The notes under the pieces: model-generated
The model's input: only the letters and a program-made list of their open reading frames with translations
Told to the model about the DNA's origin: nothing
The model's database searches: none
Shown here: positions 10,520 to 32,969 of the stretch, in pieces
Position numbering within the stretch: the stretch's first letter is position 1
Layout of the letters: every line of letters begins with the position of its first letter
Translations under genes and position numbers: made by a program
Assembly: GCA_048938105.1 (NCBI GenBank)
Contig: JBHLMN010000006.1
Location: 128,001 to 192,000 of the forward strand
DNA: 64,000 nucleotides
Direction: 5' to 3'
Source: Promethearchaeota archaeon
Lineage (GTDB): Archaea; Asgardarchaeota; Heimdallarchaeia; Hodarchaeales; Hodarchaeaceae

Positions 10520-11011
10520 TTAGAAACGACCATTTGAGAACTTATCATTCTGAGATTCATGTAAAGAGCGTGAAATCCAACCTGTATTAGCCTTTCGAGA
10601 ATCAAATAGTGGAACATAAGGTTTGATATCTAGTAAAGGAATGGAATCAAGCATATCTACTCCACGAATATTGAGAATGTTTCTTGAGGGATTAAGAGAG
10701 AATACTTCCACTATCGAGATAGCAATTGGATTTGGGCGAAGAGGAGCTCTTGTGAAGAAAATACCCCGTTCTTCCTCATCTAAAAAAGGAATAATCTTCA
10801 ATTTCACCTCATTTGCTCTATGAAAATAATAGATTAATTGGAGATGGGTAAAATCCTCCAAATCATCTAATCCCTTAACATATTAAGAAAAGATTTCAAT
10901 CCAACCCTCCGCATTAGAGTAACAGGATTGAATGGGGGTTCCTTCTTTTTCTTTAAACGGTGTTCAAATATACCCAATAACCTTAAATTAGACAATTTGT
11001 GAATTTTCCAT
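10520..11011 (-). pseudogene. trmO: tRNA m6t6A37 methyltransferase TrmO/TsaA with three in-frame stops
   Basis: From ATG 11011: MENSQIV*FKVIGYI*TPFKEKEGTPIQ...IEIFS*YVKGLDDLEDFTHL...GIFFTRAPLRPNPI...LLDIKPY; stops at 10988-10990, 10964-10966, 10883-10885. Confidence 0.85.
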
Positions 11012-12920: not shown

Positions 12921-13976
12921 TTAGTAGATCGAAATCTCAAAAAATGACTGAAGATTTGTGATCAGTGTATAAGCCTGTGTTATCGCTTCTCTAGTTTCAT
13001 TACAGGTAATGGTTAAGTTGATTTCTCCCTTTTTGGGTGATTCTACCTTGACAAGGGCTGTACCTAAAGAAGACAACCGATATGATATTTCACTCTTTTG
13101 TTTAATTCCAGTAATGATTTTTTCATCCCCAGTTATGGTAATTTCTTGCCATAGATCATCCCATGATGGTTCTCTTGGTTTTCCGGTAATTTTCAGCTCA
13201 AGGGAAACTTTAGGAAGATTTGGTTGTTTTAGACTCCCATTCATAACAATTTGATTATTGTTAAATCTCACTTTAATTTCCTTCATTGACCCAGAATATG
13301 GAATAAGACGAACAACAAGATCAGTATTACTTTGGTCAAAGATCATATCTTGAACACGATACTGAATGGAAGATAACTTGAATCGTATATCAGCAGTTAC
13401 GAATTCTCTAGGTGGTTTTGCATCAACTGCTTCCTTAAAAACTTTTAAGTTGGATTTAACAGCATTTAGGTCAAAATTTGACCTTCTTGATATCTCTGGA
13501 CCTAGTTTTGATAACGGGAGATCAGGAGTTAATTCAACAGATCCTTTAGAAATAATTCTTTGTTCCATTCTAGGAATTTCTTTTTGAGTAATTGATGTTA
13601 TTCTATGGGGATATTCTCTCCTTACCCAAATCCGAAGCCAAATAAATGAAGTGATTAAAATGGTTGGTAATCCTAACACGACAAAACCGATTATAAGCAA
13701 CTCTATAGGATCCATTGATCCAAATGTAATCGTATATCCCATAAAATTGAATACAAACTGGAATACGTAAAAAATATAAAAAATATAAAACATAGCAAAA
13801 ACTAAACCTACTCTTAACCAAAATGGGCCTTTCCCCCAAACTATCCTTTCAATAAACTGGTCAAAACTATTCACATTTCTAATTAGAAGATCAGGATACC
13901 ATCTTTCTGATTCCTTATTGTATGGTTGTCTCTCTGACTTATCATTATTATTGCTATGGGGCTTTCTTTCAGACAT
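12921..13976 (-). CDS. Hypothetical 2-TM membrane protein with large C-terminal soluble domain
   Basis: Two hydrophobic segments near N-terminus; 29 bp downstream of the 1412-aa gene. Confidence 0.8.
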   Translation of the reverse strand: MSERKPHSNNNDKSERQPYNKESERWYPDLLIRNVNSFDQFIERIVWGKGPFWLRVGLVFAMFYIFYIFYVFQFVFNFMGYTITFGSMDPIELLIIGFVVLGLPTILITSFIWLRIWVRREYPHRITSITQKEIPRMEQRIISKGSVELTPDLPLSKLGPEISRRSNFDLNAVKSNLKVFKEAVDAKPPREFVTADIRFKLSSIQYRVQDMIFDQSNTDLVVRLIPYSGSMKEIKVRFNNNQIVMNGSLKQPNLPKVSLELKITGKPREPSWDDLWQEITITGDEKIITGIKQKSEISYRLSSLGTALVKVESPKKGEINLTITCNETREAITQAYTLITNLQSFFEISIY

Positions 13977-14005
13977 TCCATCATTCAGCTTAGCTATTGT
14001 TCTGA

Positions 14006-17000
14006 TCAGTTGATATTGGCTGCATTTTCATCCAGTTTGGTTCCACAATGATAACAAAATCGACTTTTTTCTGGGACAATGTCCTTACCGCAAGAAGGAC
14101 ATCGTTTACCCAATCTCTCTTTATCTTCTTCACTTGGTACTAGAATTTCATTATCTGTTATGTCAAGTTCGAATAATTTCTCCGGAGAGACGCCCATTTC
14201 TATAATAAAGACTTCTCTTAACTTTTTAAGATAAGAGTAAAAGGATTCTTCACTTATTTCTCCATAATCTAGATGTAGGGCCCGTTTACGATAATACTCC
14301 TTCTTATATTCCTCCCATTTTTCGTGCTTCTCTTTTGTAACTATCGATTTATCAGCAAAGATAGTGTCAAATCTCTCTATAACTTTTATTAGAGGAATCT
14401 TTACTTTTTTTAGAATCGTCACATCATCTATAACTTGCTGAGCGGGGCGAGTCTCAATTCTTTTAACCATAGCTCTGATTGCATCATCCTGATGATCTCG
14501 AAAATTCTTTACAACTTCGATTGTCTTTGGTGAAAGAGTATGTCTCTTTTCAAGCTGGTTAAGTAAATAGTTAATTCTTCCGACGTAACTGTGCTTTAGA
14601 GTTTTCAGTTCATTTATAATTTTTAATTCCTCTTGATCCAATTTAGCATCTTTTAGAACAATTTTATCTTTCGTAGTTGTTTGCTTTTCATCTTCTGTTT
14701 TTTTATCTTCATCTGGAAATAGTTCTTCTATTACTGCAGATGGTTCTGTTTGTGAATCAGGGACTGATTTTTTCGTTTTCCTTAGTGATTCCTTTGCCTC
14801 AATAGCATAATCAATATCTACGTCCTCTAATTCAAATAAATTTTCAGAAGGAGTACCTATTTCCGTAACAAGGAATTCCCTTAGCTTTATAAGATAGGAA
14901 AAGAAGGATCTTTGACTAGTTTCTCCATAATCTAGATGTAGGGCCCGTTGACGATAGTACTCCTTCTTATGTTCCTCCCATCTTTTTCGTTTCTCATTTG
15001 AAACTATTGATTCATTAGCAAAGAGAGTATCAATTCTCTCTACAACTTTTGTTAGAGGAATCTTTTCTTTGGTTATTTTGGGTTTCTTTATTATTGAACT
15101 TATGAATGCTAGCGTCTTCTCAAGAGCTTGTTTCTCATCATCTTGCAACTTTTTAGTATCAAATCCCTGTAAAAACTTCTGGGAACGGTTTAACATACTC
15201 TGAAAAATTCCCTCGCTTAAATTAGAGTTTAAATACAGGTCTATCTGTTCAACAAACCAGGTTCTCCACTCGCTGATTTCTTTGTCAGCTGTAACTAAAG
15301 TTTGATTTACCTTTAATACCTCTTTCAAGAGCTCGTAAACAGTTTTCTCTACAACCACACCTTCCTGAGGGCTCTCTGTTATTGGTTTTATGTATCTAGT
15401 GAGTATAGCATCAATAAGAGCGCGTATCTCATCCAGGACTCGCATCTCATCAACTTGTAACTCATGAAAGTCTAAGAGATATTGTTTTTGGTATCGTTTT
15501 AACATCTCTTCATATCTACCTGCATTTATCTCTGCATTTTGATAACGATCAGTCTGTCGAAAAAACCAATTATTCCATTCTTGATGATGAGGTGTTTTAA
15601 GTGTTTGATTAAGTTTTAATACCTTCTCTTGTAATTTCGAAATGATTGATTCCATATCCGTAATTTCTGGAGTGACCTGAACCTCCAGTACTGTTTCTTT
15701 AAGTGTAGTATCCCAAGAAGGACGTTTTGCAACTTTTGATTCTCTTCTTGGCGTTTTTCTTATTTTTCTCCTTCTTTCTTTCTCAGGAAGTAGTCTCTCT
15801 TTTTGTTGATGGATTGTCTTTAATAGGTCATACAGGAAGGTGTTAATCTCTTCGTATTCCAATACCTCATCAGGTTGCATATCCTCAATATTGATTTTTA
15901 ATAACGATTCTCCAGAATATCGTAACATCCTTTCAAAAGTACCTAAGTCTATTTTACCTTGCCGATATCGTGTAATTCTCCCAAGCAGCGACCTATGCCA
16001 CTCATATATTTGTTTGTTTGAGTTAGCTAACCTCTGACTTACTTCTAACATTTTCTCAAGGAGCTTAGAGGTTTCTTTTCCTATAATAATGGATTTCTGA
16101 GGAGGTGAAATCTCATCGAAGGGCTTAGATTCAATGAATTCAGAAGATTCTATTGACTGATATTCGTAGAAAGAAAAAGCTCCAGCTTCCAACGCTTTTT
16201 GGTAAGTTTGAAAGTCAGGGAATCCCCCTTTTCGGATTTTCATGACAATTTCAAAATCAGGTGCCTGATAATGATCAATTTCTTCCAACTCGGAATAGTT
16301 TGATGCTCCTAGGTCTTGTGCTCGTGTATAGCTTGAATAGTCAGGAAATTTCCCCCTTTTCATTTTTTGTGCAATTTCAAGATTAGGAGCTTGTAAATCT
16401 TGAACTAGTTGATATTCACTGAAAGATGATGCCCCAACCTCCTGAGCTTTTTGGAAGGCTAGAAAGCTAGGAAATCGCCCTTTTCGGATTTTCATGACGG
16501 TATCAATATCGGGAGCTTGAAAACGATCAAGATCTTGTAACTCAGAGTAATTGAGTGCTCCCAAGTCTTGTCCCCGTTTAAAGCTTGAATAGTCAGGAAA
16601 CTTCCCCCTTTTCATCTTTTGCGCTATTTCATAATTGGGGGCTTGTAACTGATCTATGAACTTCAGTTCTGAGTAGTTTGGTGCTCCTAGGTCTTGTGCT
16701 CGTGTATAACTTGGATAATCAGGAAAGTTGCTTTTTTGAACTCTAATTGCAGTCTCTAAATCTGGTGCATGTAAGTCATCAACTAAATGAAATTCTAATA
16801 CATTTGAAGCTCCGACTCCTAGAGCTTTTTGAAAAGTAATATAATGAGCAAATCCACCTTTTTTGATTTTATCAGCTGTTTCACGATCGGGGGCTCCAAG
16901 ACGTTCAATGAATTCCAATTCGGAGAATGTTCGGACACCTACGTCTTGCGCTCGCTGATATGATTTATAATCAGGAAATTTTCCTTCCTTGATAGCTTTT

Positions 17001-18244
17001 TCTTCGATAATTGAAACTGTAGCAACATCAAGATCTTTGGTCGGGGTTTTTGGTTCTTTTACTTCTATCGCAAGTTCTTCTTCTTGTGCAAGTTTACCTA
17101 CATAAGTGGGTTTACCTTCTATTCCAACCCAGCTATTGAATCCACAAAATGGACAGGGCGGATCTACCATTCCTTTAATTTCCATAAGAGATTCAAATTC
17201 TCTTTTCTCAACTCCTCTGAGGCAACGAGAGCAAAAGATCGCCTCATTATGTTTTATTTTCGTTCCTGATAACATAGAATAAGCACTTATTGTCTTTTGT
17301 AACACAAAGTTTCTCGTATTAGTCGTTATTTTCGCTATCCGCTCCTTATAAGGATAGATGACTCCAAGGAAGAAGAAGAAAGCGATAATTATGAGAATTT
17401 CTAATTTAATAAGAACTGGGTCTACATCAGGGATAGGAAGATCTATCAAAGCGATAATAGCGATAACAGCAATCAACCCGATCCAATGTAAATTATTCCA
17501 TACGCCATAAAATGATTTTTTTAGTGTTTGTCCGATAACAATCAAGCTGGTTTCAAGAATGTTCACGATTGAACCAAAAACCATGCTAAGAAACTTTTTA
17601 ACGCGGGCTGGTAAATTTTTAAGGCCCCGACCAAGATATCTGAAAAATCCACCGACTGTAGTTTTTATTAATTGCCAAAGAGTTGAGAAAAAGGCAACAT
17701 ATTCGAAGTTTCTCACTCTATACCAGAGAATAGTAAAAAGGTTAACAATTTTGTCATCAAGATCTGTACGGTGGGAAGTGAATCCAATAATTGTTATGAT
17801 TCCACCAATAAGCTCTATAATGAAGAGTAATTCAAATTCCAAATCTATGAAAGGGAAAATGAGAAGAGGTAAAAACATTATAAAAACGCCAAGATAGGCA
17901 ATAATCGCTCCCAATGCCCCCCATTCAGAATAATCTCTCCATCGAAGAACATCTAATACTATCCCAAAAAATAAAATAAGGCCTGTGACACCAAAAAGTG
18001 CAATTGCATATTTTCCACCCGCTAATTCTTGCCTTGCAAGGCCAAGAGACACTGTGGCTAGTATAGCTAATACAAAGAGACTTGTTCCAATCAAGGTCAA
18101 TTTTGAGAAAGAAACTATCTCTGAAAAAGACGCTTTTTTGAACGTCTTTCTTTCTTTCTTCACTTCCTTTATCTCCTTAGATTCATTGACAAATGAATCG
18201 TCCTTAGACCCTTTTTCTGGAATACTTGTTTTATCTGAATTCAT
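14006..18244 (-). CDS. 1412-aa membrane-anchored multi-repeat protein with two zinc-binding motifs
   Basis: N-terminal TM segments, CSRC..CPFC, internal repeats, C-terminal CPSC..CYHC. Confidence 0.9.
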   Translation of the reverse strand: MNSDKTSIPEKGSKDDSFVNESKEIKEVKKERKTFKKASFSEIVSFSKLTLIGTSLFVLAILATVSLGLARQELAGGKYAIALFGVTGLILFFGIVLDVLRWRDYSEWGALGAIIAYLGVFIMFLPLLIFPFIDLEFELLFIIELIGGIITIIGFTSHRTDLDDKIVNLFTILWYRVRNFEYVAFFSTLWQLIKTTVGGFFRYLGRGLKNLPARVKKFLSMVFGSIVNILETSLIVIGQTLKKSFYGVWNNLHWIGLIAVIAIIALIDLPIPDVDPVLIKLEILIIIAFFFFLGVIYPYKERIAKITTNTRNFVLQKTISAYSMLSGTKIKHNEAIFCSRCLRGVEKREFESLMEIKGMVDPPCPFCGFNSWVGIEGKPTYVGKLAQEEELAIEVKEPKTPTKDLDVATVSIIEEKAIKEGKFPDYKSYQRAQDVGVRTFSELEFIERLGAPDRETADKIKKGGFAHYITFQKALGVGASNVLEFHLVDDLHAPDLETAIRVQKSNFPDYPSYTRAQDLGAPNYSELKFIDQLQAPNYEIAQKMKRGKFPDYSSFKRGQDLGALNYSELQDLDRFQAPDIDTVMKIRKGRFPSFLAFQKAQEVGASSFSEYQLVQDLQAPNLEIAQKMKRGKFPDYSSYTRAQDLGASNYSELEEIDHYQAPDFEIVMKIRKGGFPDFQTYQKALEAGAFSFYEYQSIESSEFIESKPFDEISPPQKSIIIGKETSKLLEKMLEVSQRLANSNKQIYEWHRSLLGRITRYRQGKIDLGTFERMLRYSGESLLKINIEDMQPDEVLEYEEINTFLYDLLKTIHQQKERLLPEKERRRKIRKTPRRESKVAKRPSWDTTLKETVLEVQVTPEITDMESIISKLQEKVLKLNQTLKTPHHQEWNNWFFRQTDRYQNAEINAGRYEEMLKRYQKQYLLDFHELQVDEMRVLDEIRALIDAILTRYIKPITESPQEGVVVEKTVYELLKEVLKVNQTLVTADKEISEWRTWFVEQIDLYLNSNLSEGIFQSMLNRSQKFLQGFDTKKLQDDEKQALEKTLAFISSIIKKPKITKEKIPLTKVVERIDTLFANESIVSNEKRKRWEEHKKEYYRQRALHLDYGETSQRSFFSYLIKLREFLVTEIGTPSENLFELEDVDIDYAIEAKESLRKTKKSVPDSQTEPSAVIEELFPDEDKKTEDEKQTTTKDKIVLKDAKLDQEELKIINELKTLKHSYVGRINYLLNQLEKRHTLSPKTIEVVKNFRDHQDDAIRAMVKRIETRPAQQVIDDVTILKKVKIPLIKVIERFDTIFADKSIVTKEKHEKWEEYKKEYYRKRALHLDYGEISEESFYSYLKKLREVFIIEMGVSPEKLFELDITDNEILVPSEEDKERLGKRCPSCGKDIVPEKSRFCYHCGTKLDENAANIN
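14162..15064 (-). repeat. Two 80-aa (240-bp) intragenic repeat copies, 663 bp apart
   Basis: KIPL..V.ER.DT.FA...KKEYYR.RALHLDYGE at 14162-14401 and 14825-15064; ~30-bp identical DNA core. Confidence 0.9.
15084..16063 (-). repeat. Three diverged ~80-aa helical repeats
   Basis: L...VL...Q.L......EW......I..Y.....G.F..ML pattern, three times. Confidence 0.7.
16157..16984 (-). repeat. Tandem 42-aa (126-bp) repeat, about 6.5 copies
   Basis: Consensus GKFPDYxSYxRAQDLGAxNYSELxxIDxLQAPDxExAxKxKR. Confidence 0.92.
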
Positions 18245-21200
18245 TGTTCATCACTCCTCTCTGTTCTACCTTTCAGATTTGAAAGTTTAATAGAATCCCT
18301 CATCAGGAAAGTAATCATGACCAGGATTATTCCGGGAGCAATGAAAGGGATTCCAAGTATGATGAGAATTAGGTTTGGTTGGCCAGCCCAAGCTCCAAGT
18401 AATGTTTCGACCTCTGACTCCAAAATTCTTTGGATATTAAGTAAGGTAAAATTCTGTACGAATTTTGCTATTAGTTCAATAAAAATACCTAGAATTGGTA
18501 GATTTTCTGCTAGGAAAATTTTCGTCCACTCTCCCGAAGGATCAAATATTCCAGATAGAATTAGCACAATTCCATAAAAGATTGCTGAAACAGACAAAAT
18601 TACGAAAAGAATTAGTATAATAGAATCTATCATAGCCACAACTAATTGGCCTAACTGAGTAAATGCTTTAGATAGTAATTTCACAACTGTATAACTTGCT
18701 TTGATAATAGCAGCTTTGGCAGCAACAAAGAAGTTATAAATAGAATGGGCTAATTGAACGAAAACATTACGAATAGTAATGAACAATTGTTGAATGAAAT
18801 GATTAACCTGAACGAACCACGCAGTGTAAAGAAGACCAAGGCCACAAACCAACAACCCTATTCTGACCAACAAATGAAGGTCTGGAAAGACAGCTCTCAG
18901 TATCACAAGTGGACCAGCAAGAGTAGCAAGAGCTCGTAGAATATCTATACGGTGATCCCAGGTATAATGGAGGAAGGTTACAACCGATAAGTAAGCTGAA
19001 CGAACTGCTTGGATAATAGCATTCTTGATAGCAACAAGTACATTGTAAAAAGCATGAATTGTCCGAATAAAAGCGTCTCTAAGAGAAATAAGGGATTGTT
19101 TGATAAAGTGATTAGTTTGGTGAAACCAAGCCACATAGAGAAGAAGAAGGCCTAGAAAGGTTACCACAATAGTTATGAATGGATCGATGAATGGATAACC
19201 AAAGAGAGGTAGAGAGAAGGTTAAGATAATCAGTAAAGATCCAATAATTGTTAAAATACTACGTAAAATATTAATGCGATGATCCCAGGTATAATAGAGG
19301 AAGGCTACAATCGATAAGTAAGTAGAACGTGCAGCTTGGACAATAGCATTCTTAATGTCAACCAGAAAATCTTTGATCTCTGTTCTCCATAACAACCCAT
19401 TTTCTGTAAGACCAATAAACATTAAGGCTAAAGAAATTCTAATCTCTATTGACTCAAGAGGAAGCGGGATAGATGAGACGAAAAATATTACTCCCCAAAG
19501 TACTACACCAATACTTAGAATAGTTCCAACACTTCTGAAAGATGGATGTCCATACCAAATAGCAACTGTTAGAATATACCCACCAACGAAAAGGACTGAT
19601 GCGATTAGAAAATCAGTATACCAGAAAAAAAATCCAATTCCGATGAAGATAAATGCTACAGTTGTGGTTGAGTAACGAATAATCTCCTTGTAATAAGTAC
19701 GAATAAACAGGGCTGTTTTCTTGTATGTTTCTTTCAAGAAACGAACAAAGGCGCGAAATGCTTGAGCTATCGCATTTTTAGTATCAACCAAAAACTTATG
19801 GATGGTATGAGCAACTTTCTTAATTCCTTTAACAATTGAAACAACAGTATGAGTAAAAACATGCCAAAGCTCTATTCGCCAGACTATTCCATCCACCATA
19901 ACACCAACGAGTACCAAGCCACCTGGAATCCAAATAGCCAGTACATCATTGGAACCTAAAACAGTAAGCAGTAGAACGAATCCACAAAGGAAGACTGTAG
20001 TACTAAGAGTCGTTGTAACTGCCCTGAAATTGGCATGTTTGTACCAAATCGCCACACCCACAACGTAACCTATCAAAAAAGGAATTAAGGGTAGTTCGGG
20101 AGGTAATCTAAAAATCCACGATATTAGGGGACCAAGAATCATTAAACCAAGAGCAAAGGTTGTGATAACATCGCGGTAATATGTTTGGAGGAACTGAACT
20201 ACAGAATGGTAGGTGTTTTTTAGGAAAACAACAAATCTATGATAAGTCCGAACACTGGCGTTTTTTAGAGTAATGAGGGATTGTTTGGCAAAATGATTGG
20301 TTTGATAGAACCAAGCAGCATAGAGGAAGAGAAAACCTAGAATTACTACCCCTATACTAATACTTAGATCAATTTGATACTGTGGAGTCACCAAAGCAGA
20401 TAAGAAGAAGGCTGAAATAATCAAAAGAGATCCAATGATTGTTAATAAGGCACGTATAATATCAACACGATGATCCCAAGTATAGTGGAGGAAAGCTAGA
20501 ATTGTAAAATAGATTGAACGGCTTGTTTGAACAATTGTATTCTTAACAACAACGAGGAAGTTATAGATGGCATGATTGGTTTGATGGAACCAAGCGACAT
20601 AAAGGAGAGGCCCTCCAATGATCAAACCCCACCCGACACCACTCAGATTTAAAAACAAGGTGTTAAGGGAAACAGCAAAACCAAAAGCAACAATAAAAGC
20701 ACCAATAATCGTTAAAAAAGCTCGCAGAATACCGACGCGGTGATCCCAGGTATATTTAAGGAAAGCTTTTATTGTCAAATACATTGACAGAACTGTCTTA
20801 CGAATTAATTGAATAGTAGTACGAACGACTTGTACAACAGCATTTTTGACAGCGACAAGAAAATTGAAAATTTCTTGTCTCCAGATAATTCCATTCTCTC
20901 CTAATCCAATGACAATTAACACTCCAGAAATGAGGAGAGGGAGAGGAATAGGCCAAAGTACACCTGAAATAATGTAAGGATATAGTAGATAAAGACCCCA
21001 AAGAAGAATTAAGGTACTTAAAGCCGTAGAAATCTTTCTAAAATGAGTATGGTTTAACCAAACGACAACTCCGAAAACATAACCTCCTAAAAAAAGGCTT
21101 AAAGGTAATCCAATGGCATTATCCCACCCTATGAACCCTAGAGCCATGATCGAAAACGCAATAATGAACAGAAATAATCTAGCAATTAAAAATTTATATA

Positions 21201-21699
21201 CACTTAACCAAAACAATAGAGGCTCATCAATTCGAGTCATCTCAGTAAATGCGCCAATTGCTATCAGAACAAGGCCTAGACCAAGTAGAGGGAGAAAGAT
21301 AGATTTTAGGACTGAGATATTATAATTTGATAAAAAATCTGCTGGAATTAATGATAAAAGACTAACAACAAGCGTTAGAATCAATCCAAAGAGACCTATG
21401 AAACCTCCAAGATTAGTTGATTTATTTCTGTTCTCATTAATCCATCGTAATTGAGCAAATCCTAAAAAAATTCCCCCCAAAAAAGCAATCAAGAGAAAAG
21501 TAATTAAAACTAAAGGAAGAATGTTGTTTGGTTCACTTGGATAGTATATCGGACCTATTTCTACAATCAAAAGCCCTAATACTAGTAAAGATGCAAAACG
21601 GACTAAATTACGTATTTGATTTTCCCGATGTATATATTTTTTAGGGCTAAATTCCTCAATCTCTTCAAAATTTGTTGAACTTTTCTCTGTCTCAATCAA
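18241..21699 (-). CDS. 1152-aa polytopic membrane protein of repeated TM-hairpin and amphipathic-helix modules
   Basis: YTWDHR x4, AWFxQxNH x4, GY..W..H..FR x3, (E/D)-containing NG/DG..WRxE x3; ATGA overlap with next gene. Confidence 0.9.
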   Translation of the reverse strand: MIETEKSSTNFEEIEEFSPKKYIHRENQIRNLVRFASLLVLGLLIVEIGPIYYPSEPNNILPLVLITFLLIAFLGGIFLGFAQLRWINENRNKSTNLGGFIGLFGLILTLVVSLLSLIPADFLSNYNISVLKSIFLPLLGLGLVLIAIGAFTEMTRIDEPLLFWLSVYKFLIARLFLFIIAFSIMALGFIGWDNAIGLPLSLFLGGYVFGVVVWLNHTHFRKISTALSTLILLWGLYLLYPYIISGVLWPIPLPLLISGVLIVIGLGENGIIWRQEIFNFLVAVKNAVVQVVRTTIQLIRKTVLSMYLTIKAFLKYTWDHRVGILRAFLTIIGAFIVAFGFAVSLNTLFLNLSGVGWGLIIGGPLLYVAWFHQTNHAIYNFLVVVKNTIVQTSRSIYFTILAFLHYTWDHRVDIIRALLTIIGSLLIISAFFLSALVTPQYQIDLSISIGVVILGFLFLYAAWFYQTNHFAKQSLITLKNASVRTYHRFVVFLKNTYHSVVQFLQTYYRDVITTFALGLMILGPLISWIFRLPPELPLIPFLIGYVVGVAIWYKHANFRAVTTTLSTTVFLCGFVLLLTVLGSNDVLAIWIPGGLVLVGVMVDGIVWRIELWHVFTHTVVSIVKGIKKVAHTIHKFLVDTKNAIAQAFRAFVRFLKETYKKTALFIRTYYKEIIRYSTTTVAFIFIGIGFFFWYTDFLIASVLFVGGYILTVAIWYGHPSFRSVGTILSIGVVLWGVIFFVSSIPLPLESIEIRISLALMFIGLTENGLLWRTEIKDFLVDIKNAIVQAARSTYLSIVAFLYYTWDHRINILRSILTIIGSLLIILTFSLPLFGYPFIDPFITIVVTFLGLLLLYVAWFHQTNHFIKQSLISLRDAFIRTIHAFYNVLVAIKNAIIQAVRSAYLSVVTFLHYTWDHRIDILRALATLAGPLVILRAVFPDLHLLVRIGLLVCGLGLLYTAWFVQVNHFIQQLFITIRNVFVQLAHSIYNFFVAAKAAIIKASYTVVKLLSKAFTQLGQLVVAMIDSIILILFVILSVSAIFYGIVLILSGIFDPSGEWTKIFLAENLPILGIFIELIAKFVQNFTLLNIQRILESEVETLLGAWAGQPNLILIILGIPFIAPGIILVMITFLMRDSIKLSNLKGRTERSDEQ

Positions 21700-22130
21700 A
21701 TCTATCCAACTCTTTTACTACTCTTAATACAGACCTGTGTTAGAGACAAAATCTTTTCTTGATATTTTTTAGACTCTCTTTTAAGTATATCAGATTTTAA
21801 ATTACTCTATTTTTATGTTATATAAAATTTTCCATGAAAAATATAATTATAAAACATTGTGATTGTCGATTTCTGAAAATATAAAATTGTAGAAACAAAA
21901 ATTTTCAAAGATCCAGCTTTAAAAGTTGAAATTTTTCTAGATAATGGACATGATTCTAGAGAATTGCTACAGACAGACAATCTAGTATTATAAATATACA
22001 AATCAACTGTTTTTGATTGAACCTGATTAGTTTTATTTGTTCTCTTTGAATTGTGAAGGAAAGCTTTATTACAACAATGAAGACTAAACCATTTTATAAT
22101 GCGATTATTAGACATGGTTTATTTCGCAAA

Positions 22131-22190
22131 AAAGATCTTTAAAAAATCTGATGAAGTTTTCCCCGAGAAAATACTTTGTGGTGGAAACAA
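22131..22190. promoter_or_regulatory. Conserved promoter/operator element, copy 1
   Basis: ctttaaaaaatct...gagaaaatactttgtggtggaaacaa; similar to 32461-32518. Confidence 0.6.
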
Positions 22191-22261
22191 ACAAATTAAT
22201 CCTAAGATTTGCCTGATTAACGAGAAATTCACTTAATTAAAATCAAATTGGAATTTATAGT

Positions 22262-22975
22262 GTGATAAATATGGATTTATTGTCTGATTTACAGCCGACT
22301 CTTGAAATTTTGGATAAGATAGTAGCATTTGAGAAAAAGATGGAATACAACAGGCTTTTGTTATTCTTATGCCTTGCTGGATTTATTGCTATTATTGGAG
22401 GCTGGATTGAATATGTATGTTACCATTTCTTGTTTGTAGATTCCACTTTCTTCATTCTTGGTTTAACCTCTATCGCTGAACCAGTTCTATTTTTAGGATT
22501 ATGGCTTATTTATCTTATACCCCTCATTGGCATCATCATATTTACCACTGGAATTTCTCCAGGCTTTATTAATTGGAATAAAGCGTACCGAAACATAGGG
22601 GCTATAACAATAGGATTATTCATTCTTACACATGTGTTAGTGTTGTTAATTGGTTCAATAGATGCTCCTGATTCCCAATTCATCCCAATTATATGGGGTA
22701 CAATGATATGTCTTGGTTTCCTGCTCGCTAGTAGAATTTTATTCTTAGAAACGAGAAATAAGGAGATACAATTAGGGTTTTTAGCATTCGGAATATTTGG
22801 GTTAGTACTTGGTATAATTTCCTCAATGATTTTTTATCCGTTTAGTAGCGAATTAGCAATGTTTCTCTTTTGTAACATTTTTGGTGTCGTTTTGATTGGA
22901 GCTAGCATGATTAGTTACTGGAAAGTTGGTATATCACCACAAGAAGCTAAAAATAACTATAGGAAAGCTGATTAG
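22262..22975 (+). CDS. Hypothetical integral membrane protein (6-7 TM)
   Basis: Hydrophobic helices; abuts the wHTH regulator gene. Confidence 0.85.
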   Translation: MINMDLLSDLQPTLEILDKIVAFEKKMEYNRLLLFLCLAGFIAIIGGWIEYVCYHFLFVDSTFFILGLTSIAEPVLFLGLWLIYLIPLIGIIIFTTGISPGFINWNKAYRNIGAITIGLFILTHVLVLLIGSIDAPDSQFIPIIWGTMICLGFLLASRILFLETRNKEIQLGFLAFGIFGLVLGIISSMIFYPFSSELAMFLFCNIFGVVLIGASMISYWKVGISPQEAKNNYRKAD

Positions 22976-23296
22976 ATGAAGGAGAGACCAGTTTCCATAG
23001 AAACCCTTATTGGTGAGTTAAACTCAACTCTACACGAACCAGTACGTTTAGGAATACTGATGCTACTTCATTTGAACTCTTCTCTTACTTTTAGTGTAAT
23101 TCAAAAAGGACTAGGTGTAACATCTGGAAATTTAAACACTCATTTGACAAAACTTGATACAGAGGGCTTTATTGTTAGAGAAAAAACATTTGTGAATTAT
23201 CGACCCAGAACGGTCATTTACATTACAAAAGAAGGGAGAGAAGCCTTAAAGAAGTATTCTAAATCACTGAAACGAATACTGATAGAAATTTCATAA
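22976..23296 (+). CDS. Winged-HTH transcriptional regulator (ArsR/HTH_34 type)
   Basis: LHEPVRLGIL...TSGNLNTHLTKL...RPRTVIYITKEGREAL. Confidence 0.92.
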   Translation: MKERPVSIETLIGELNSTLHEPVRLGILMLLHLNSSLTFSVIQKGLGVTSGNLNTHLTKLDTEGFIVREKTFVNYRPRTVIYITKEGREALKKYSKSLKRILIEIS

Positions 23297-23394: not shown

Positions 23395-25416
23395 TTATCT
23401 TTTCATCTTTTTCAATGTTAGAATGGATATGATGGAGAAAACAACCATGATTCCAGTCATACCTGGTGAGATTGATGGCAATGCATAAGTTTCATCTGTT
23501 TCTTCTGTCTTTGATTTAGTTGTTTCAACTACTGAAGTCACAGTTTCTGTTACAGTCACGGTGCTTCGAAAGGGGTCTGCAGGGTACATCTCTCGGGGAT
23601 CGTGGGCATTCATTCCAAAGATAGGATTGTAGTGATTGATACCCATTTCTTGATACCCCCATTCGTACCCTCGGAGAACCTTCGCCCAAGTGGACTGATT
23701 TATTTCCCAAGATTGTGCCTGAATCCCTAGTCGACTATCAATGAAGTCGTAAGTTCCGTCTTTAAGACCTGCAACTGCAGTGGTAGCCTCTTTCACCACC
23801 TTGTAAGTGACTGGCGATAAACTGGGTGTTGGAAGCCAGTTACCACCGCCTAACATATGAGGATCATGACCCATGATAGTCGGATCATAAAAAGGATTAA
23901 CTTTGATGAAAATGGTGTCTGCATCAGGATATGAATCAAACATGTAAGCTCCACAACCTATTGGAGGATGTTTGGTATTTGTATCATCAGTTTTCCATTC
24001 CCAAAATGGAGTTTTTTCCATTTCAGCTTTTTGTAAGATAGGTATGTTACCAAATAAGACGGTTTCCACATAAGGATAGAACTTGGGTAAAGTGAACGTG
24101 ATTTCCATATCACCCGTTTTCTGAATATTGCTAGCATCACCCACAATATTGAGTAATGTACCTCGGTTTGGACCCCAGACATCTTCATCTAAAGCAGCCT
24201 GATAGGTAAAGAGGACATCATCAGCGGTTACGGATGTGCCATCAGTCCATTTAACTCCGTCTCGGATAGTAACTGCCCATGTTAAGTAGTCTTCACTATG
24301 AGCCCAAGATTTAGCTAGCCATGGAATCGCATGAGTGAGATTGTAATTACCTCTTCGCCTAGAGAGACGACAAAAGATGTTGTCAAGAATGATGAAATCA
24401 TAATAACTATTAGACATCAGAGGATTAAGGTCAATATAGTCTCCTGGTTGTGCGATAATAGCTGAGGTTTGACCAGTAATTGATAGGTTAGCAAGATTTT
24501 GTCTAAAACCATGAAATAGATCAAATCCTGCTGCATTTATATCCATGGCAAAAACATCAATTTCCTGTCGAATGATAGCTGTAGGCACTTGATCATAATA
24601 CCATTGTTGATATTCTTTCAGGAGTTTGACTCGTTCACCAGGGTCAGGTTCCGCATAAATGTCCGTCCATAACGCAGTCACATTTGGGTATGCCTTATCC
24701 GCCCATTTACCAGAGGTTGGAGCCCCATCCTCAATCCAGTAACAATTAGGTCCTGGAGGAAAGTGATCTTTATCATAATATTCGTTATATGTTGGATCAG
24801 GGGAAGCATCATAACCAACAAAAAACATATCATAACCGCCGTGATCATAATCATAACCAGTACCGACTGGATCAAGGAATAAACGGGGCATAAGTATATT
24901 CCAGTTCCACCAATCTATTGATGCATCAATACCAACATTATTCAGTGCATAACAGATCAGTGATGCCCATTGACTCCTAGCAGTGTTCGTAGTTGGACAA
25001 ACAAGGGTCATTTTGAAATAAGGTACATTTGTGTGGGTAGCATTGGTCCATTCTATATATTCCTCGTATTTTAAACCAAAAACTTCCTCCAAAAGTGCTC
25101 TAGCCTTTGAGGTACTATATTCCCTCACTTGGATACTTGCCTCATATACTCCTTCGAAATTCACCCCGATAGGGGAGGCAATTGGTACTGCGAATCCATG
25201 ATGCAACCCATCAATGATCGTCTGACGGGGAATACAATAATCTATTGCCTGTCGAATTTTTTGCCGATCATAGGCATCAAGGTTGTTATAATACCATTCT
25301 CGCCCTTTTCCTTCCCATGGTGCTGTATTAGCAGCACTAACTGGAACATTCAAAAAAACAGTATATGTCCCAAATATTAAAAGGAAAAATAGCAAAATTA
25401 TTCTTGTTTTATTCAT
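23395..25416 (-). CDS. Family-5 (peptide/nickel) ABC solute-binding protein, circularly permuted, C-terminally anchored
   Basis: Signal peptide; KIRQAIDY; PWLAKSW..SED..TW...IRDGVKWTDGTSVTADDVLFT; T/E-rich linker, TM helix, basic tail. Confidence 0.9.
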   Translation of the reverse strand: MNKTRIILLFFLLIFGTYTVFLNVPVSAANTAPWEGKGREWYYNNLDAYDRQKIRQAIDYCIPRQTIIDGLHHGFAVPIASPIGVNFEGVYEASIQVREYSTSKARALLEEVFGLKYEEYIEWTNATHTNVPYFKMTLVCPTTNTARSQWASLICYALNNVGIDASIDWWNWNILMPRLFLDPVGTGYDYDHGGYDMFFVGYDASPDPTYNEYYDKDHFPPGPNCYWIEDGAPTSGKWADKAYPNVTALWTDIYAEPDPGERVKLLKEYQQWYYDQVPTAIIRQEIDVFAMDINAAGFDLFHGFRQNLANLSITGQTSAIIAQPGDYIDLNPLMSNSYYDFIILDNIFCRLSRRRGNYNLTHAIPWLAKSWAHSEDYLTWAVTIRDGVKWTDGTSVTADDVLFTYQAALDEDVWGPNRGTLLNIVGDASNIQKTGDMEITFTLPKFYPYVETVLFGNIPILQKAEMEKTPFWEWKTDDTNTKHPPIGCGAYMFDSYPDADTIFIKVNPFYDPTIMGHDPHMLGGGNWLPTPSLSPVTYKVVKEATTAVAGLKDGTYDFIDSRLGIQAQSWEINQSTWAKVLRGYEWGYQEMGINHYNPIFGMNAHDPREMYPADPFRSTVTVTETVTSVVETTKSKTEETDETYALPSISPGMTGIMVVFSIISILTLKKMKR

Positions 25417-25940: not shown

Positions 25941-27116
25941 ATGGTTGGCTTAGCAACTGTTACTAACGAAACTGTGACATTCGAACCCCTTTTTATTGAT
26001 ATCCTCGAGGACAACATCAATGAGCAACACTCACGAATCCTTGCTTTGATGTTTAGACTTGGTGGTTACACCACTTTGAATGTCTTGACAAATCTTATCG
26101 GCATTGCTCAACCTACTGTTAGTATTAGAGTAGATGAACTCGTGAAAAAGGGATATATTCGAAAAAACACAGAGCTAATGCCAATGGCGCTCGTTCTTCT
26201 ATTGACTCAAGATGACTTGGATATTCAGCTAAGAAAGCGATTAGAAGTACAACGAAATGCCGCCAAATTTCTCCAACAAGCATCTGACATTAAGAATATG
26301 CAGCTGGTTGAAGACACCTTCATAAAAGCAATTCAGATTTTATATGATACTGAAGAGATTTTAGCTAAGATGATTGCATATATTTATCTCCATCAGAGAA
26401 TTGCAAGAAATAAACTATACCAAATGATTGATCCTGAGGATTCTAAATTTGGATCCATAGATGAACAGGAAAGGGATAGAAGGAAGAAAGATGCGATCAT
26501 TACTTCTCGTCCTGAAATTTTTCACATCATCTACAAGAAACATCAGAAGAAAGCGATGTTTATTCAACCCCGACTTCCATTAAAACTATTTGTGAAACAT
26601 CGTTTAGTATACCTAGAATCATTATACACATATTATAGGGAACTCTTGTTGAAGTTAGGCTCTTTTATGTCAGATGAATACGAATCAATTATTCCTCATC
26701 AACTTCTCAACTATCCTTCTGAATTAAAAATACGAATAGAGACTTGTTTAAAGCACTATTCAATGATCAGAGTCATTGACAATGCAGTCTATCGTCATAA
26801 TAATGGGACTAATGGCGTTGTAGATTTGATTGTTACACGTAATAACTTCTCTCAAAACCATAAAGTGATGATACTTTCTAATAAGAGTATTAAGCTTCCG
26901 AAAACAATAGACACTTCCCAATTTGAGATACGTCCTCTCAAAGGCCGTATTAGCCGGGATTATATGAACCGTGATTTCATTATCTTTGGTAATCATGGTT
27001 GTTTAGTCCTTCCGTCCCAACCTAGATCTATTCCTTATTATAATATCGCACCACGGTTCACCTCATCAGTACTGGATATTTTTAAGGCGAATTGGAGGAA
27101 TTCTACTGCTATCTGA
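25941..27116 (+). CDS. Winged-HTH regulator (TrmB/MarR-like) with extra domains
   Basis: LTNLIGIAQPTVSIRVDELVKKGYI; C-terminal alpha/beta domain ending IFKANW. Confidence 0.75.
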   Translation: MVGLATVTNETVTFEPLFIDILEDNINEQHSRILALMFRLGGYTTLNVLTNLIGIAQPTVSIRVDELVKKGYIRKNTELMPMALVLLLTQDDLDIQLRKRLEVQRNAAKFLQQASDIKNMQLVEDTFIKAIQILYDTEEILAKMIAYIYLHQRIARNKLYQMIDPEDSKFGSIDEQERDRRKKDAIITSRPEIFHIIYKKHQKKAMFIQPRLPLKLFVKHRLVYLESLYTYYRELLLKLGSFMSDEYESIIPHQLLNYPSELKIRIETCLKHYSMIRVIDNAVYRHNNGTNGVVDLIVTRNNFSQNHKVMILSNKSIKLPKTIDTSQFEIRPLKGRISRDYMNRDFIIFGNHGCLVLPSQPRSIPYYNIAPRFTSSVLDIFKANWRNSTAI

Positions 27117-27126
27117 TTTTCTACGC

Positions 27127-27693
27127 TTGATTAAAGGGTTTGTTTTATTTATTGGACCTAGCTCTGCTGGTAAAACCAGTATTTTAAGACGCCTTGTGAC
27201 AGGAAAATTCGAACATCAGGAACCGACGTTAGGATTTTCCGAAGAAAACGTAGCAAAAGTAAGAATAATTGAAATTGGAGGACAATCTACTTTTAGGCAT
27301 TATTGGAAGGATGCTATTGATCAAAATCCTGTAAATATCTTCTTTGTTATCGATGTAACTAAAGAAAAGGACTACAGTGAGTATGTGGATTTTATTGAGG
27401 AATATGAAGGCAATTACCCCCAAATCGCACAAATGACTGTTTTAACTGCCAACAAAATAGATCTAGTACAGAAAATCCCGACTCATCTAAATAATGTCAC
27501 GATTCCAATTCAATGCAGTGCAAAGACTGGAGAAGGAATGTTAGATATATTAGAGATGATTGCCAGTCACCGAAATGAAGCTGAAGCAGTAATACAACCT
27601 CAACGAATTGAGCAAAGTAACAGTGAACAAACCATCAACAATGATGAAGAAAAGGCAGAATCGATATTAAGGGAATTTCAAGGAAAATTCTAA
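27127..27693 (+). CDS. Arf/Rab-like small GTPase
   Basis: GPSSAGKT, PTLG, IEIGGQ, NKID, CSAKTG. Confidence 0.92.
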   Translation: MIKGFVLFIGPSSAGKTSILRRLVTGKFEHQEPTLGFSEENVAKVRIIEIGGQSTFRHYWKDAIDQNPVNIFFVIDVTKEKDYSEYVDFIEEYEGNYPQIAQMTVLTANKIDLVQKIPTHLNNVTIPIQCSAKTGEGMLDILEMIASHRNEAEAVIQPQRIEQSNSEQTINNDEEKAESILREFQGKF

Positions 27694-28319: not shown

Positions 28320-29411
28320 TCAAGTGTATGTTGGTACAAACTGAAAACATTCTGAGATTAAGGTGGTAGCTTCTTTATAATCTTCTTCCTTAATAATCGC
28401 TTCGGGAAGAACAGCTTCAAACCTATCAACAAACTTCTCCGAAAAACTCTCAAGAGTATTTATAAGTAATTTTGACGTTTTGACAGTAACTAATACAAAA
28501 GAGAATTCACTCTTATGGTTAATGACTAGTATTGATTTATCGAGGTGGATCTCCCGAACATTTGGGTAGTGTAAAGACTCTTTTAAAATGGTGCTAATTC
28601 CTTCAGTTTCTTCTGAGAAAAACGCTTCACCTGTGGGAGTATCTTGAGTACTTATCCAACGATGAGAAAAAAGAAGTATACCCTCATTGTTGAAAACAGC
28701 TAATCTAGACGTCTTATAAGGTAAAAGAAAAAATATTTGAGGTTGAAATGTAAATGGAATCGCCATCAATATTATTCCAATCAAGAACAATATTTCATTA
28801 ATACCCAATCCAGGGGGGATAAATGTAGTAATGATGTTAATAGAAGGAATGATCCCCATGAAGATGGTTCCTACCAACACCATAATTGAGTATCGTTCTA
28901 AATTTTGGGGACTGTTGATAGAGAGTTTAACAGCATAATAAGTCCATAATAAGGATCTAAAGGAATATAACATAGCTGCAGCGTAATAAGTATGTACGAT
29001 AACATCTTTCGCTGCTTGACCTGGTACTAAAGCATAAATTAAGACTGTAGCTACAATTAAGCCTAAAATTGTAGTTTTTATTGGATCAACAGATGTTCGA
29101 TTAATATAATCGACAAATAACAGTAGGAACAAAGTACTAGGTAGCAAAACAAAGTAACCAATATATCCAAGGAAAGTTGCCAAAGTCATTTGAAAAAATG
29201 GGAATGGCACATCGATTTCTGATAAGAGTAAGATAGTGGATATAGTTGTAAGTCCCATCCAAAAAAACAATCCTCCCCAATCTAGCGCCAAATAGAGAAA
29301 ATGAGGATGTTTTTGCTTCAGATATCTGTATAATGAAACTATCGGAACAATGGCTAAAAATGGTACTGTTAATAAAGCAACAATATTTTCAAAAGCTAAA
29401 ACTAATGCCAT
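28320..29411 (-). CDS. ~7-TM membrane protein with probable C-terminal longin-like domain
   Basis: About 7 hydrophobic helices, then RLAVFNNEGILLFSH...FSFVLVT...LESFSEKF (beta-beta-alpha-beta-beta-beta-alpha pattern). Confidence 0.75.
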   Translation of the reverse strand: MALVLAFENIVALLTVPFLAIVPIVSLYRYLKQKHPHFLYLALDWGGLFFWMGLTTISTILLLSEIDVPFPFFQMTLATFLGYIGYFVLLPSTLFLLLFVDYINRTSVDPIKTTILGLIVATVLIYALVPGQAAKDVIVHTYYAAAMLYSFRSLLWTYYAVKLSINSPQNLERYSIMVLVGTIFMGIIPSINIITTFIPPGLGINEILFLIGIILMAIPFTFQPQIFFLLPYKTSRLAVFNNEGILLFSHRWISTQDTPTGEAFFSEETEGISTILKESLHYPNVREIHLDKSILVINHKSEFSFVLVTVKTSKLLINTLESFSEKFVDRFEAVLPEAIIKEEDYKEATTLISECFQFVPTYT

Positions 29412-31537: not shown

Positions 31538-32254
31538 TTAGAAAAATGAGAGAACTCGGATATCATTTTCAATATGGTCAAGTTTTTCAGGATTAAAAAC
31601 AGAAATATCTGAAATAGTACCCATCATCGATTTAAATAAGTTGATAAGATGTTTTTTTCGCATTATTATCAATGACTCGTATTTTTTCGGATAGTATAAC
31701 AATAGAACCGCAAGAACACCCCCACTTGGAATTTTCATTCTCGTATCCTTTACTGTAGGATCTATTACCTGGAATCCAAAAGAAATAAAATGCATTTCTT
31801 CTTCTGGTAAGCCTTGTTTCTTTTCCCCCATCCTTATACTAGTTAAAGGAAAAGGCCCGTATATAGTTTCAATTTCTCCATGTTGATAGAGAACTGCACA
31901 ATATTCCAGCATTGATTGAATAACTGATTCATTAAATGGACAAGATTTAGTTTTTCCTCGGATACTCAATCCATCGTCAGTGATCGAACCCAAGCAAAGC
32001 CCCATCTCTATAGCCCTTGGTTCGAATTGTTTTATTGACTCTACTTTTCTGGATTCCCTAGATGTTTTACGCCAAATAATTAATCCAATAGCTAAGAATG
32101 ATAAGAAAATTAGTAATAGAATGTAAATGATATTTTCAAGAGAAAATGCAGGGGGAATAAAGACACCAAGCCAAAAATCAGAAAATAAAATTAATAAAAA
32201 AGGCATCAAGAAGAGTAAACCAAAACAGATACTCCAGATTACTCCTTTTTTCAT
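31538..32254 (-). CDS. 2-TM protein carrying a paralogue of the neighbour's cytoplasmic domain
   Basis: GLCLGSITDDGL...CPF...QSMLEYCAVLYQ...YGPFPLTS matches the C-terminus of 29621-31345. Confidence 0.85.
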   Translation of the reverse strand: MKKGVIWSICFGLLFLMPFLLILFSDFWLGVFIPPAFSLENIIYILLLIFLSFLAIGLIIWRKTSRESRKVESIKQFEPRAIEMGLCLGSITDDGLSIRGKTKSCPFNESVIQSMLEYCAVLYQHGEIETIYGPFPLTSIRMGEKKQGLPEEEMHFISFGFQVIDPTVKDTRMKIPSGGVLAVLLLYYPKKYESLIIMRKKHLINLFKSMMGTISDISVFNPEKLDHIENDIRVLSFF

Positions 32255-32460: not shown

Positions 32461-32518
32461 AAAGCTTTAAAAATCTCGAGTAGTTTTTTCCTGAGAGAAT
32501 ACTTTGTGCCACAAACAA
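32461..32518. promoter_or_regulatory. Conserved promoter/operator element, copy 2 (palindrome TTTGTG-C-CACAAA)
   Basis: ctttaaaaatct...gagagaatactttgtgccacaaacaa. Confidence 0.6.
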
Positions 32519-32599: not shown

Positions 32600-32908
32600 T
32601 CATTTGTTAGAGATAGCAGCCACTTTGTCTTCCATCTTTCTTGGTTTGTCTTTACGATCATCGATACGTAGTTGAGTTAAAACTCGTAATGCACCAGCTT
32701 TCAGAATGGCTTCATGAGCAAGCCTAGTCACATCAAAAATTTGTTCTAGAGAATCAGCTTCAATAACTGTACCCATAGGATGATGGATAACTTTTATTCC
32801 TTTGTAATTATCAATCTCTTTTGCTGCTTCTCTCACGAATTTACTTAAACTAGTTCCTACTCCTACTGGAAATGTAGTAATATCTGCTATGATCTTGGTA
32901 CTCATCAA
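32600..32908 (-). CDS. MTH1187/YkoF-family thiamine-binding protein
   Basis: PVGVGTSLSKFV, PMGTVIE, LRIDDRKDK. Confidence 0.92.
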   Translation of the reverse strand: MMSTKIIADITTFPVGVGTSLSKFVREAAKEIDNYKGIKVIHHPMGTVIEADSLEQIFDVTRLAHEAILKAGALRVLTQLRIDDRKDKPRKMEDKVAAISNK

Positions 32909-32969
32909 TAACCACCTATTATTTTTGTATAATTATTTAGTAATCAGGAAATATCGAACTTTATCAAAG

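Follow-up and report, generated by a model that had tools for sequence, protein, structure and literature searches.

Three linked membrane-protein genes, two of them built from repeats

This report concerns two very large membrane-protein genes, here called A and B, and the smaller gene C that lies behind them, on the minus strand of a 64,000-nucleotide (nt) stretch of DNA (the window) from a Promethearchaeota archaeon of the family Hodarchaeaceae (assembly GCA_048938105.1, contig JBHLMN010000006.1, positions 128,001 to 192,000). Codes beginning with L and G stand for the loci and genomes used in the comparison, G000 being the genome of the window itself. A first-pass annotation had taken the three genes for an operon encoding a heteromeric complex with a cytoplasmic scaffold, possibly one that shapes membranes. 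The open reading frames (ORFs) are as follows.

18241-21699, minus strand: gene A, a polytopic membrane protein of 1152 amino acids (aa) with about 25-28 transmembrane (TM) segments and a TTG start (ORF and translation; 16 homologs)
14006-18244, minus strand: gene B, 1412 aa, an N-terminal membrane domain followed by an arm of about 1040 aa (ORF and translation; 10 homologs, 7 of them sharing contigs with A homologs)
12921-13976, minus strand: gene C, 351 aa, with a basic N-terminus, 2 TM segments and a predicted cytoplasmic C domain at aa ~148-351, nt 12924-13535 (hydropathy and homology)

The ORF list confirms that the three genes are co-oriented and tightly linked, with an ATGA at 18241-18244 in which the stop codon of A overlaps the start codon of B, and a spacing of 29 nt between B and C. 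The TTG start of A coincides in the alignment with Met1 of its homologs. By hydropathy, A has about 25-28 TM segments, the first 300 residues of B contain 6-7 and C has 2, in agreement with the initial description of all three as membrane proteins. The further remark that they carry no enzyme or transporter motif was borne out by Pfam and NCBIfam, which at E<=1 matched no such family and gave a zinc ribbon at the C-terminus of B as the sole match in A, B and C. Scans of the window's proteins with PADLOC and PHROG returned generic zinc-ribbon and winged-helix matches only and no defence or phage family, and a full-length match to a transporter or a phage protein was found in none of these four collections. 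Searches of the sequences of solved structures with residues 300-1412 of B, with C, and with profiles of A and of its compact relative A' (described below) produced nothing meaningful, and no description of the A'/B' family was found in literature searches.

Among 5.8 billion clustered proteins, 16 relatives of A were recovered, all from the Heimdall group, and 10 of B, in source records named Hodarchaeales, Heimdallarchaeota or Promethearchaeota archaeon. Over most of their length the homologs of either protein are 45-69% identical, and many alignment columns are invariant. Gene A is present in 6 of the 9 sampled genomes of its own genus, and the other 190 sampled genomes of the phylum yield one weak match. 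Linkage of A and B is conserved in seven pairs of homologs sharing a contig and in the 14 loci examined from other genera; the two genes overlap or abut in loci L009, L010, L011, L013 and L014. The notion of a three-gene operon did not survive this comparison, since the unit is not fixed: the place of C is taken in relatives by beta-helix receptors or is empty.

Both giants had been described as built from repeats, and self-BLAST of fragments finds repeats in A as well as in B. Three regions can be distinguished in A.

21109-21699, minus strand: N-domain of A, aa 1-197, 5 TM segments, with a 4-TM core paralogous to the N-domain of B (invariant columns, hhalign)
18733-21108, minus strand: repeat region of A, aa 198-989 (fragment self-BLAST, motif map, lysine/arginine (K/R) counts of loops)
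18244-18732, minus strand: C-terminal domain of A, aa 990-1152, homologous to the C-terminal domain of compact A'

The N-domain carries, in loops predicted to be cytoplasmic, the motifs QLRW.NE.RNKSTNLGG and E.TRIDEP, which are invariant in the homolog alignment. Two module types recur at aa 198-990 (E down to 1e-28): three 'X' modules of 3 TM segments each, with the motif GGY..W..H..FR..NG..WR, alternate with 'Y' modules in which a K/R-rich amphipathic helix of about 45 aa is followed by WDHR or TYY(R/K), a TM hairpin and WF.Q.NH. The hairpins pair TM segments of about 17-22 residues through loops of 4-15 residues and, judged by hydropathy, look like ordinary full-length TM pairs and not like short wedges. 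A would have grown by duplication of these modules of TM hairpin and amphipathic helix. Its C-terminal domain matches that of A' in a comparison of profiles (hhalign A1 vs A7, Prob 95.3%, E 2.1e-8), more weakly when a single sequence is used. AlphaFold2 with 17 homologs returned a model of A with a predicted local distance difference test (pLDDT) of 53 and a predicted template-modelling score (pTM) of 0.25, which was left out of fold searches; a feature search of the ESM Atlas with A gave no usable match.

The arm of B, predicted to be cytoplasmic from the positive-inside rule and from its zinc ribbons, is a succession of helical repeats.

16148-17035, minus strand: seven 42-aa repeats, aa 404-699, equal to 21 units of 14 residues (short helix and turn), a predicted alpha-solenoid (self-BLAST, AlphaFold2)
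15086-16126, minus strand: three helical modules of ~100 aa, aa 707-1053, modelled as up-down bundles (self-BLAST, model)
14732-15076, minus strand: module M copy 1, aa 1057-1171, 69% identical to copy 2
14090-14413, minus strand: module M copy 2, aa 1278-1385, resembling the M-like part of a soluble paralog (self-BLAST)

The 42-aa repeats match one another pairwise with E-values down to 1e-36, and each comprises three helix-turn units. In the AlphaFold2 model of residues 376-1412 (mean pLDDT 70), residues 412-699 reach a pLDDT of ~90 and form 21 helices of 9-10 residues, spaced one per 14 residues; the helical modules behind them have a pLDDT of 78-87, ~60-77 and ~67-82, respectively. At the DNA level a period of 252 bp with 80% identity at 16194-16648 shows a later duplication of two units in the solenoid. 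No known fold was recognised in the arm: Foldseek against the PDB gave nothing at E<=0.001, a structure search of the Atlas reached TM-scores by matched row of at most 0.33, and a wide VIA-align search gave generic four-helix bundles only, at Z 10-11.6, within the background for helical models. The best rows, none of them significant, were four-helix bundles, talin among them, at Z ~9-11.6 and, in Foldseek, a designed toroid at E 0.019. In its combination of short-helix solenoid units with helical bundles the arm is like the talin rod and designed alpha/alpha toroids; it differs from such rod and solenoid scaffolds in lacking any significant match or sequence relation to them, and its 14-residue unit is much shorter than HEAT, ARM or TPR units.

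The solenoid repeat is found in 14 of 300 genomes of the phylum, sporadically within the class, with one marginal match (E 1.9e-4) outside it. Its other carriers have varied anchors: an extracellular beta-helix and one TM segment ahead of repeats and RING finger (G218), four TM segments ahead of repeats and RING (G115 and G233), predicted N-terminal TM segments ahead of repeats and RING (G029), an N-terminally cut frame with repeats and RING (G202), and an FG-GAP/TSP3 ectodomain with one TM segment and repeats (G037). Because these carriers place the repeats between anchors or ectodomains and, mostly, a RING finger, it appears that the solenoid serves membrane-anchored proteins, most of them with a terminal RING, as a spacer or adaptor in the cytoplasm. 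Membrane-anchored proteins of other genera with solenoid and C-terminal RING lie at L060:2422-4107 (minus strand), L061:2496-5624 (plus), L063:2448-4208 (minus) and L020:1534-4176 (minus); the one in L060, with its extracellular beta-helix, looks like a receptor-type ligase.

A compact gene pair across the class and the RING finger absent from B

The remaining parts of B connect it with a family of smaller proteins.

17345-18139, minus strand: membrane domain of B, aa 36-300, ~6 TM segments, which defines the B/B' family (hhalign against compact B')
17144-17233, minus strand: zinc ribbon 1, C338-x2-C...C364-x2-C, conserved with the B' family (alignments)
14033-14107, minus strand: C-terminal zinc ribbon, aa 1380-1404 (Pfam Zn_ribbon_3, E 6.3e-6, just under the gathering cut-off)

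Weak matches of B outside its genus led to much smaller proteins, here called B'. Of the 82 genomes of the class, 46 were matched by a profile of the membrane domain and zinc ribbon, as were 13 of its 18 sampled genera; outside the genus the matched open frames typically have 410-540 aa, and inside it there is one match per genome. With a profile of the membrane domain alone, just 82 proteins were retrieved from 1.84 billion representatives, so that the B family is small and lineage-restricted. Homology of the membrane domains of B and B' is supported by hhalign (A2 vs P0037, Prob 94%, E 1.5e-7), and the loop motifs of the B type, LR..G after TM2 and GF.E.YDLN.K after TM4, are present in the window's B. 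The cysteines C338, C341, C364 and C367 are invariant in the genus and align with a B' ribbon located directly behind the membrane domain.

Gene order was followed in twelve further loci fetched from other genera. B' is found in all twelve, with 407-532 aa and ~7-9 TM segments, and 11 of the twelve proteins have five CxxC motifs. In 11 of the 12 loci B' is preceded directly by a large polytopic gene, A', that overlaps or abuts it, the contig of the twelfth ending first; ten of these A' genes encode 501-901 aa with 11-21 TM segments, and the remaining one, a 358-aa fragment, is truncated by the end of its contig. G025 shows the same A'-B' arrangement, as does G207, where A' precedes a partial B'. 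The compact pair thus resembles A-B in the homologous membrane domain of B, the homologous C-terminal domain of A, the gene order and the position of the zinc ribbon. It differs in that the window's B has no RING and bears the arm of ~1040 aa, in that A is 1.3 to 2.3 times longer by module duplication, and in that genes for C-domain or beta-helix receptors and an HTH_34 regulator are attached only in the window's genus. Since the genus holds a single copy per genome, A-B can be regarded as the genus-specific, enlarged and RING-less ortholog of a class-wide two-gene module. In one genome of another family, genes for CheD and CheC stand immediately upstream of a compact A'-B' on the same strand (L021:6882-8032, minus strand); the other loci are without them.

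The C-terminus of B' consists of the zinc ribbon followed by C-x2-C-x12-C-x2-C-x4-H-x2-H-x3-W-x6-C-P-x-C. Pfam zf-RING_2 matches 8 of 10 B' proteins over its full length, the eight scores lying within 9 bits of the gathering cut-off (18.5-28.7 vs 27.3) and two of them above it; 24 of 53 family representatives also match. Searched against solved structures, the B' profile finds the RING-H2 ligases Arkadia/RNF165 at E 7e-9. Genes for ubiquitin-conjugating enzymes (E2) were found in all five genomes tested, including that of the window, where PF00179 has five matches, four of them above the cut-off. Compact B', with its zinc ribbon and RING-H2 finger, is on this account a candidate membrane-embedded ubiquitin ligase. 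In the 11 B homologs of the genus no RING finger was found, Pfam reporting zinc ribbons only, and a search with the RING-H2 pattern gave no match either; the zinc sites of the window's B are two four-cysteine ribbons, not the eight-ligand cross-brace of a RING. Because the homologs of the genus are without RING and the relatives have it, the window's B would be a RING-less derivative with an added arm, belonging to a family that normally ends in RING-H2 and having lost the finger in the genus.

Two sets of eukaryotic proteins invite comparison. Like Hrd1/synoviolin (with Der1 and Hrd3) and gp78/AMFR, compact B' has a multi-span domain followed by a cytoplasmic RING-H2 and stands beside a polytopic partner, and its profile matches the RING regions of synoviolin, Hrd1 and AMFR at E 2e-4 to 1e-2. 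The match of the full-length B' profile is restricted to the RING region, no sequence similarity being detected between the membrane domains; the window's B has no RING, and the archaeal protein would sit in the cell membrane and not in the endoplasmic reticulum. The cassette of ribbon and RING in compact B' also aligns, over both elements, with the tails of the GATOR2 proteins MIOS, WDR24 and WDR59 and of the IFT-A proteins WDR19/IFT144 and IFT122 (E 3.6e-8 to 1e-4). Unlike these, the window's B keeps the ribbon without RING, and a coatomer-type architecture of beta-propellers or solenoids is absent.

The first-pass annotation had also pointed to a diverged N-terminal TM block common to A and B. 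Profiles limited to the genus give it little weight (hhalign Prob 4.5%, E 0.009), with invariant W, G, G, T and D columns that coincide. Class-wide profiles of the A/A' and B/B' N-domains, aligned over 124 columns, raise it to significance (Prob 95.3%, E 2.1e-8) in the same register (LRW..LG..G; G.F.E.T..D). Because this class-wide match is significant in the same register, A and B appear to carry paralogous 4-TM N-domains, an arrangement that suits a pseudo-symmetric heterodimer. Given the conserved translational coupling of the two genes, the prior for binding of A to B is already high. Complex prediction was carried out on the compact pair of L039 (507 + 407 aa, alignments A7/A8) and gave a score of 0.44, the best of 3 controls scoring 0.00. 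Of 80 solved complexes 58 attained the mark for this score, as did 2 of 110 mismatched pairs; with a score of 0.60 or less it was attained by only 7 of the 80 and by both of those mismatches. Prediction runs for L039 agree in at least 68% of contacts, with a partner pLDDT of at least 65. The model thus lends weak support to binding of compact A' to B'.

Receptor tails, operator and neighbouring genes

Gene C is a relative of receptors. Between its residues ~91-349 and the C-terminal part of an 853-aa beta-helix protein, comprising TM segment and tail, identity is 46% (E 2e-65); that protein is a receptor encoded directly after B in G009. C domains were found in 16 of the 21 genomes of the genus, frequently as multiple paralogs of 850-1140 aa; in G014 and G003, too, the domain follows B, and G007 retains a remnant of it. 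C is, to judge from these alignments, a member of a receptor-tail family that lacks an ectodomain. The idea that C is an orphan was rejected, as the search that gave one homolog was length-limited and the C domain is widespread in the genus. In the ESM Atlas, a feature search with C gave no usable match and a structure search TM-scores of at most 0.32.

A soluble 336-aa paralog on contig C4 of the window's own genome (L072:4297-5307, plus strand) joins an N-terminal M-like module to a C domain; its M-like part matches both M copies of B at 1e-6 to 1e-7, and its C domain matches at 1e-63. On the grounds of this fusion paralog and of the gene neighbourhood it is proposed that the arm of B and the C-domain tails work together, presumably in contact. 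A 334-aa protein of 3 TM segments with a C domain is encoded at L073:3034-4038.

The region upstream of A, on the two strands, and a second region about 10 kb away hold the elements that follow.

22137-22195, minus strand: promoter region with a GTTTG..CACAAAG box, an inverted repeat of the TTCTC-N3-GAGAA type (operator core 22157-22178) and the TATA-like sequence TTTTTTAAAG at 22137-22146 (five-genome alignment)
21700-22115, minus strand: probable 5' leader of the A operon, ~415 nt (ORF judged non-coding)
22262-22975, plus strand: 237-aa polytopic membrane protein, divergent, conserved partner of the regulator gene (same order in L009, L010, L013 and L014; no Pfam match)
22976-23296, plus strand: 106-aa winged-helix regulator HTH_34, candidate operator binder (Pfam PF13601, E 3.6e-21; linkage in four relatives)
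31538-32254, minus strand: behind the second operator, a 238-aa protein with 2 TM segments
29621-31345, minus strand: behind the second operator, a 574-aa beta-helix (NosD-like) receptor with a TM segment at ~aa 367 and a cytoplasmic tail
28320-29411, minus strand: behind the second operator, a 363-aa protein with 7 TM segments

The TATA-like box stands ~26 nt before a conserved ATG at 22115. The 100-aa ORF that begins there (21813-22115, minus strand) was discarded as a gene, not being protein-like and differing from its closest relative mostly by non-synonymous changes, as judged from the alignment; an Rfam search of the leader matched no family. The HTH_34 protein would bind the operator, as its position and conserved linkage suggest. 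A second copy of operator and promoter lies at 32485-32506 (minus strand), and the two copies are the only exact matches in the whole genome, both within the window. The genes behind the second operator and A-B-C probably belong to one regulon. A match with one mismatch on contig C49 falls inside a coding gene and was treated as chance. On contig C35 of the same genome an operator-like site with 2 mismatches, including the CACAAAG box, is found at 64996-65017 (plus strand; L049:2997-3018), intergenic before a 241-aa gene of 5 TM segments; that gene was considered as a relative of the 237-aa gene and dropped, there being no similarity.

In L010, L013 and L014, genes for type-I receptors with beta-helix or lectin domains lie between the promoter and A, and the genes Thiamine_BP, DAP_DH_C and Amidohydro_2 flank the HTH_34 pair; in the window those three flank the second operator copy instead (32600-35069, minus strand). 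Because the gene orders of the window and of these three loci differ in this way, it seems that an ancestral locus was split or rearranged in the window's genome and its promoter duplicated. A pair of genes for a winged-helix protein and an Arf-like GTPase (25941-27693, plus strand) adjoins the HTH_34 gene in L009; in the window a gene for a family-5 solute-binding protein (23395-25416, minus strand) intervenes. Beyond C, a TrmO_N ORF at 10520-10861 (minus strand) has 113 aa and covers positions 31-116 of 116 of the profile, its ortholog in L014 having 163 aa; its start probably lies further upstream or at another codon.

A proposed docking platform and its alternatives

Taken together, the findings are best described, tentatively and at somewhat less than an even chance, by a regulated docking platform in the membrane, in which a heteromeric A-B core descended from a pair resembling RING ligases has acquired a new arm that docks receptor tails. 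In the proposed mechanism, the paralogous 4-TM N-domains would join A and B into a core that sits in the cytoplasmic membrane. B would have lost its RING and gained the arm, made of the 21-unit solenoid, three bundles, two M modules and the terminal zinc ribbon, which would most likely provide a platform for docking on the inner side of the membrane. The docked partners would be receptor tails of the C-domain family, that is C itself and the beta-helix receptors beside A-B in relatives. The operon would probably be controlled by the divergent HTH_34 regulator and its membrane partner through the palindromic operator, and the same operator precedes a beta-helix receptor operon 10 kb away. The output could be ubiquitin-like modification still, with a RING protein or an E2 acting in trans, or pure scaffolding or signalling. 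Of the earlier view of a heteromeric complex with a cytoplasmic scaffold, the complex and the scaffold are sustained by the coupled pair, the paralogous N-domains, the large predicted cytoplasmic arm and the weak prediction for the compact pair, and the fixed unit of three genes is given up.

Several observations weigh against the docking platform. Topology is based on hydropathy and K/R counts alone, and the model of A is unusable. Composition may inflate the hhalign scores of membrane proteins: the full profiles of A' and B' (A7 vs A8) reach Prob 91% at 7% identity, a similarity that was set aside as a probable effect of composition. The complex test was passed weakly, and by the compact pair and not by the window's own proteins. 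The 42-aa repeat is present in the B of only 6 of 19 genomes of the genus, and some shorter B forms terminate right behind the zinc ribbon, from which the arm may be dispensable or fast-evolving. Docking itself is derived from neighbourhood and from one fusion paralog whose M-like part has modest E-values. Finally, the eight RING matches of the genome all lie on contigs other than that of the window, and the link to ubiquitin is one of ancestry only.

The alternative that survives best, although unlikely, is that the complex is still a membrane ligase for ubiquitin or a similar modifier, whose arm recruits a RING protein or an E2 in trans and for which C-domain receptors are substrates of turnover or quality control. 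It draws on the RING-H2 finger of the ancestral B', on the joining of the solenoid to RING fingers in four carriers of other genera, and on the retention elsewhere in the genome of 4-5 E2 genes along with the RING matches just mentioned. Yet no RING or E2 gene stands in or beside the operon, binding of the arm to either is a supposition, and loss of the finger in 11 of 11 homologs of the genus fits a changed function at least as well.

Membrane shaping, a function suggested in the first-pass annotation, is now quite improbable. Under it, the hairpins and amphipathic helices of A would bend or tubulate the membrane in the manner of reticulon and REEP, with B as cytoplasmic scaffold. The modules of A combine a hairpin with a long K/R-rich amphipathic helix, as would be expected, and further points in favour are the large size and repetitive build of the proteins and an Asgard-only distribution of the family; the likeness to reticulon/REEP/Yop1, with TM hairpins and amphipathic helices on the cytoplasmic face, is one of sequence pattern only. 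However, no reticulon, REEP or other shaping family was detected, and when A, B and C were scanned with Pfam at E<=1, neither the reticulon homology domain nor TB2/DP1/HVA22 appeared. The hairpins, judged by hydropathy, look like two ordinary TM segments that span the membrane fully, the proteins are far larger than those of the reticulon group, the RING at the end of the compact members points to a role in ligation or signalling, and the highest conservation falls on polar motifs in predicted cytoplasmic loops, as for a binding or active site and unlike what a protein with shape as its sole role would show.

Still less probable is that A is a channel or transporter of a family not yet described, with B as its regulatory or anchoring subunit. 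The high number of TM segments in A, its invariant charged and polar residues near the membrane and a nearby ABC/FtsX exporter gene speak in its favour, but no family is matched in Pfam, NCBIfam or the sequences of solved structures, the TM number in the family ranges from 11 to 28 through module duplication, which is unusual for a defined pore, and the nearness of the ABC/FtsX gene, with unrelated genes in between, is a matter of general synteny in the genus. That the enlarged pair is a degenerating or neutrally drifting remnant is scarcely credible: the RING has been lost, the arm differs in length and make-up between members of the genus and some relatives have in-frame stops, but the frames are intact over 1152 and 1412 codons, the homologs are well conserved with many invariant columns, and the coupling of the two genes is conserved, as are promoter and operator.

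Heimdall-group archaea are, as far as is known, the nearest relatives of eukaryotes, in which membrane-embedded RING ligases that have polytopic partners are a hallmark of how endomembrane quality is controlled and receptors are turned over. The candidate archaeal module described here appears evolutionarily plastic, having dropped its finger in one genus, where both subunits became giant and tied to receptors and a dedicated regulator. The points that are new are the apparent RING-less giant ortholog, the solenoid as a probable spacer ahead of RING fingers, the likely identity of C, and the operator. A further extension, in itself rather doubtful, is a receptor-scaffold system derived from a membrane ubiquitin ligase, in which beta-helix and lectin receptors dock through a shared domain of their cytoplasmic tails on the arm of B and the A-B core hands them over to ubiquitin-like modification or turnover in trans. 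If true, it would represent an Asgard forerunner of eukaryotic receptor down-regulation or of membrane quality control of the type of endoplasmic-reticulum-associated degradation, and it would illustrate the division of such ligases into catalytic subunits and adaptors. Three modules for which no library has an entry, namely the 14-residue helix-turn solenoid that leads from anchors to RING, the receptor-tail C domain and the M module, provide testable hypotheses on protein-protein interactions in Asgard cell-surface signalling.

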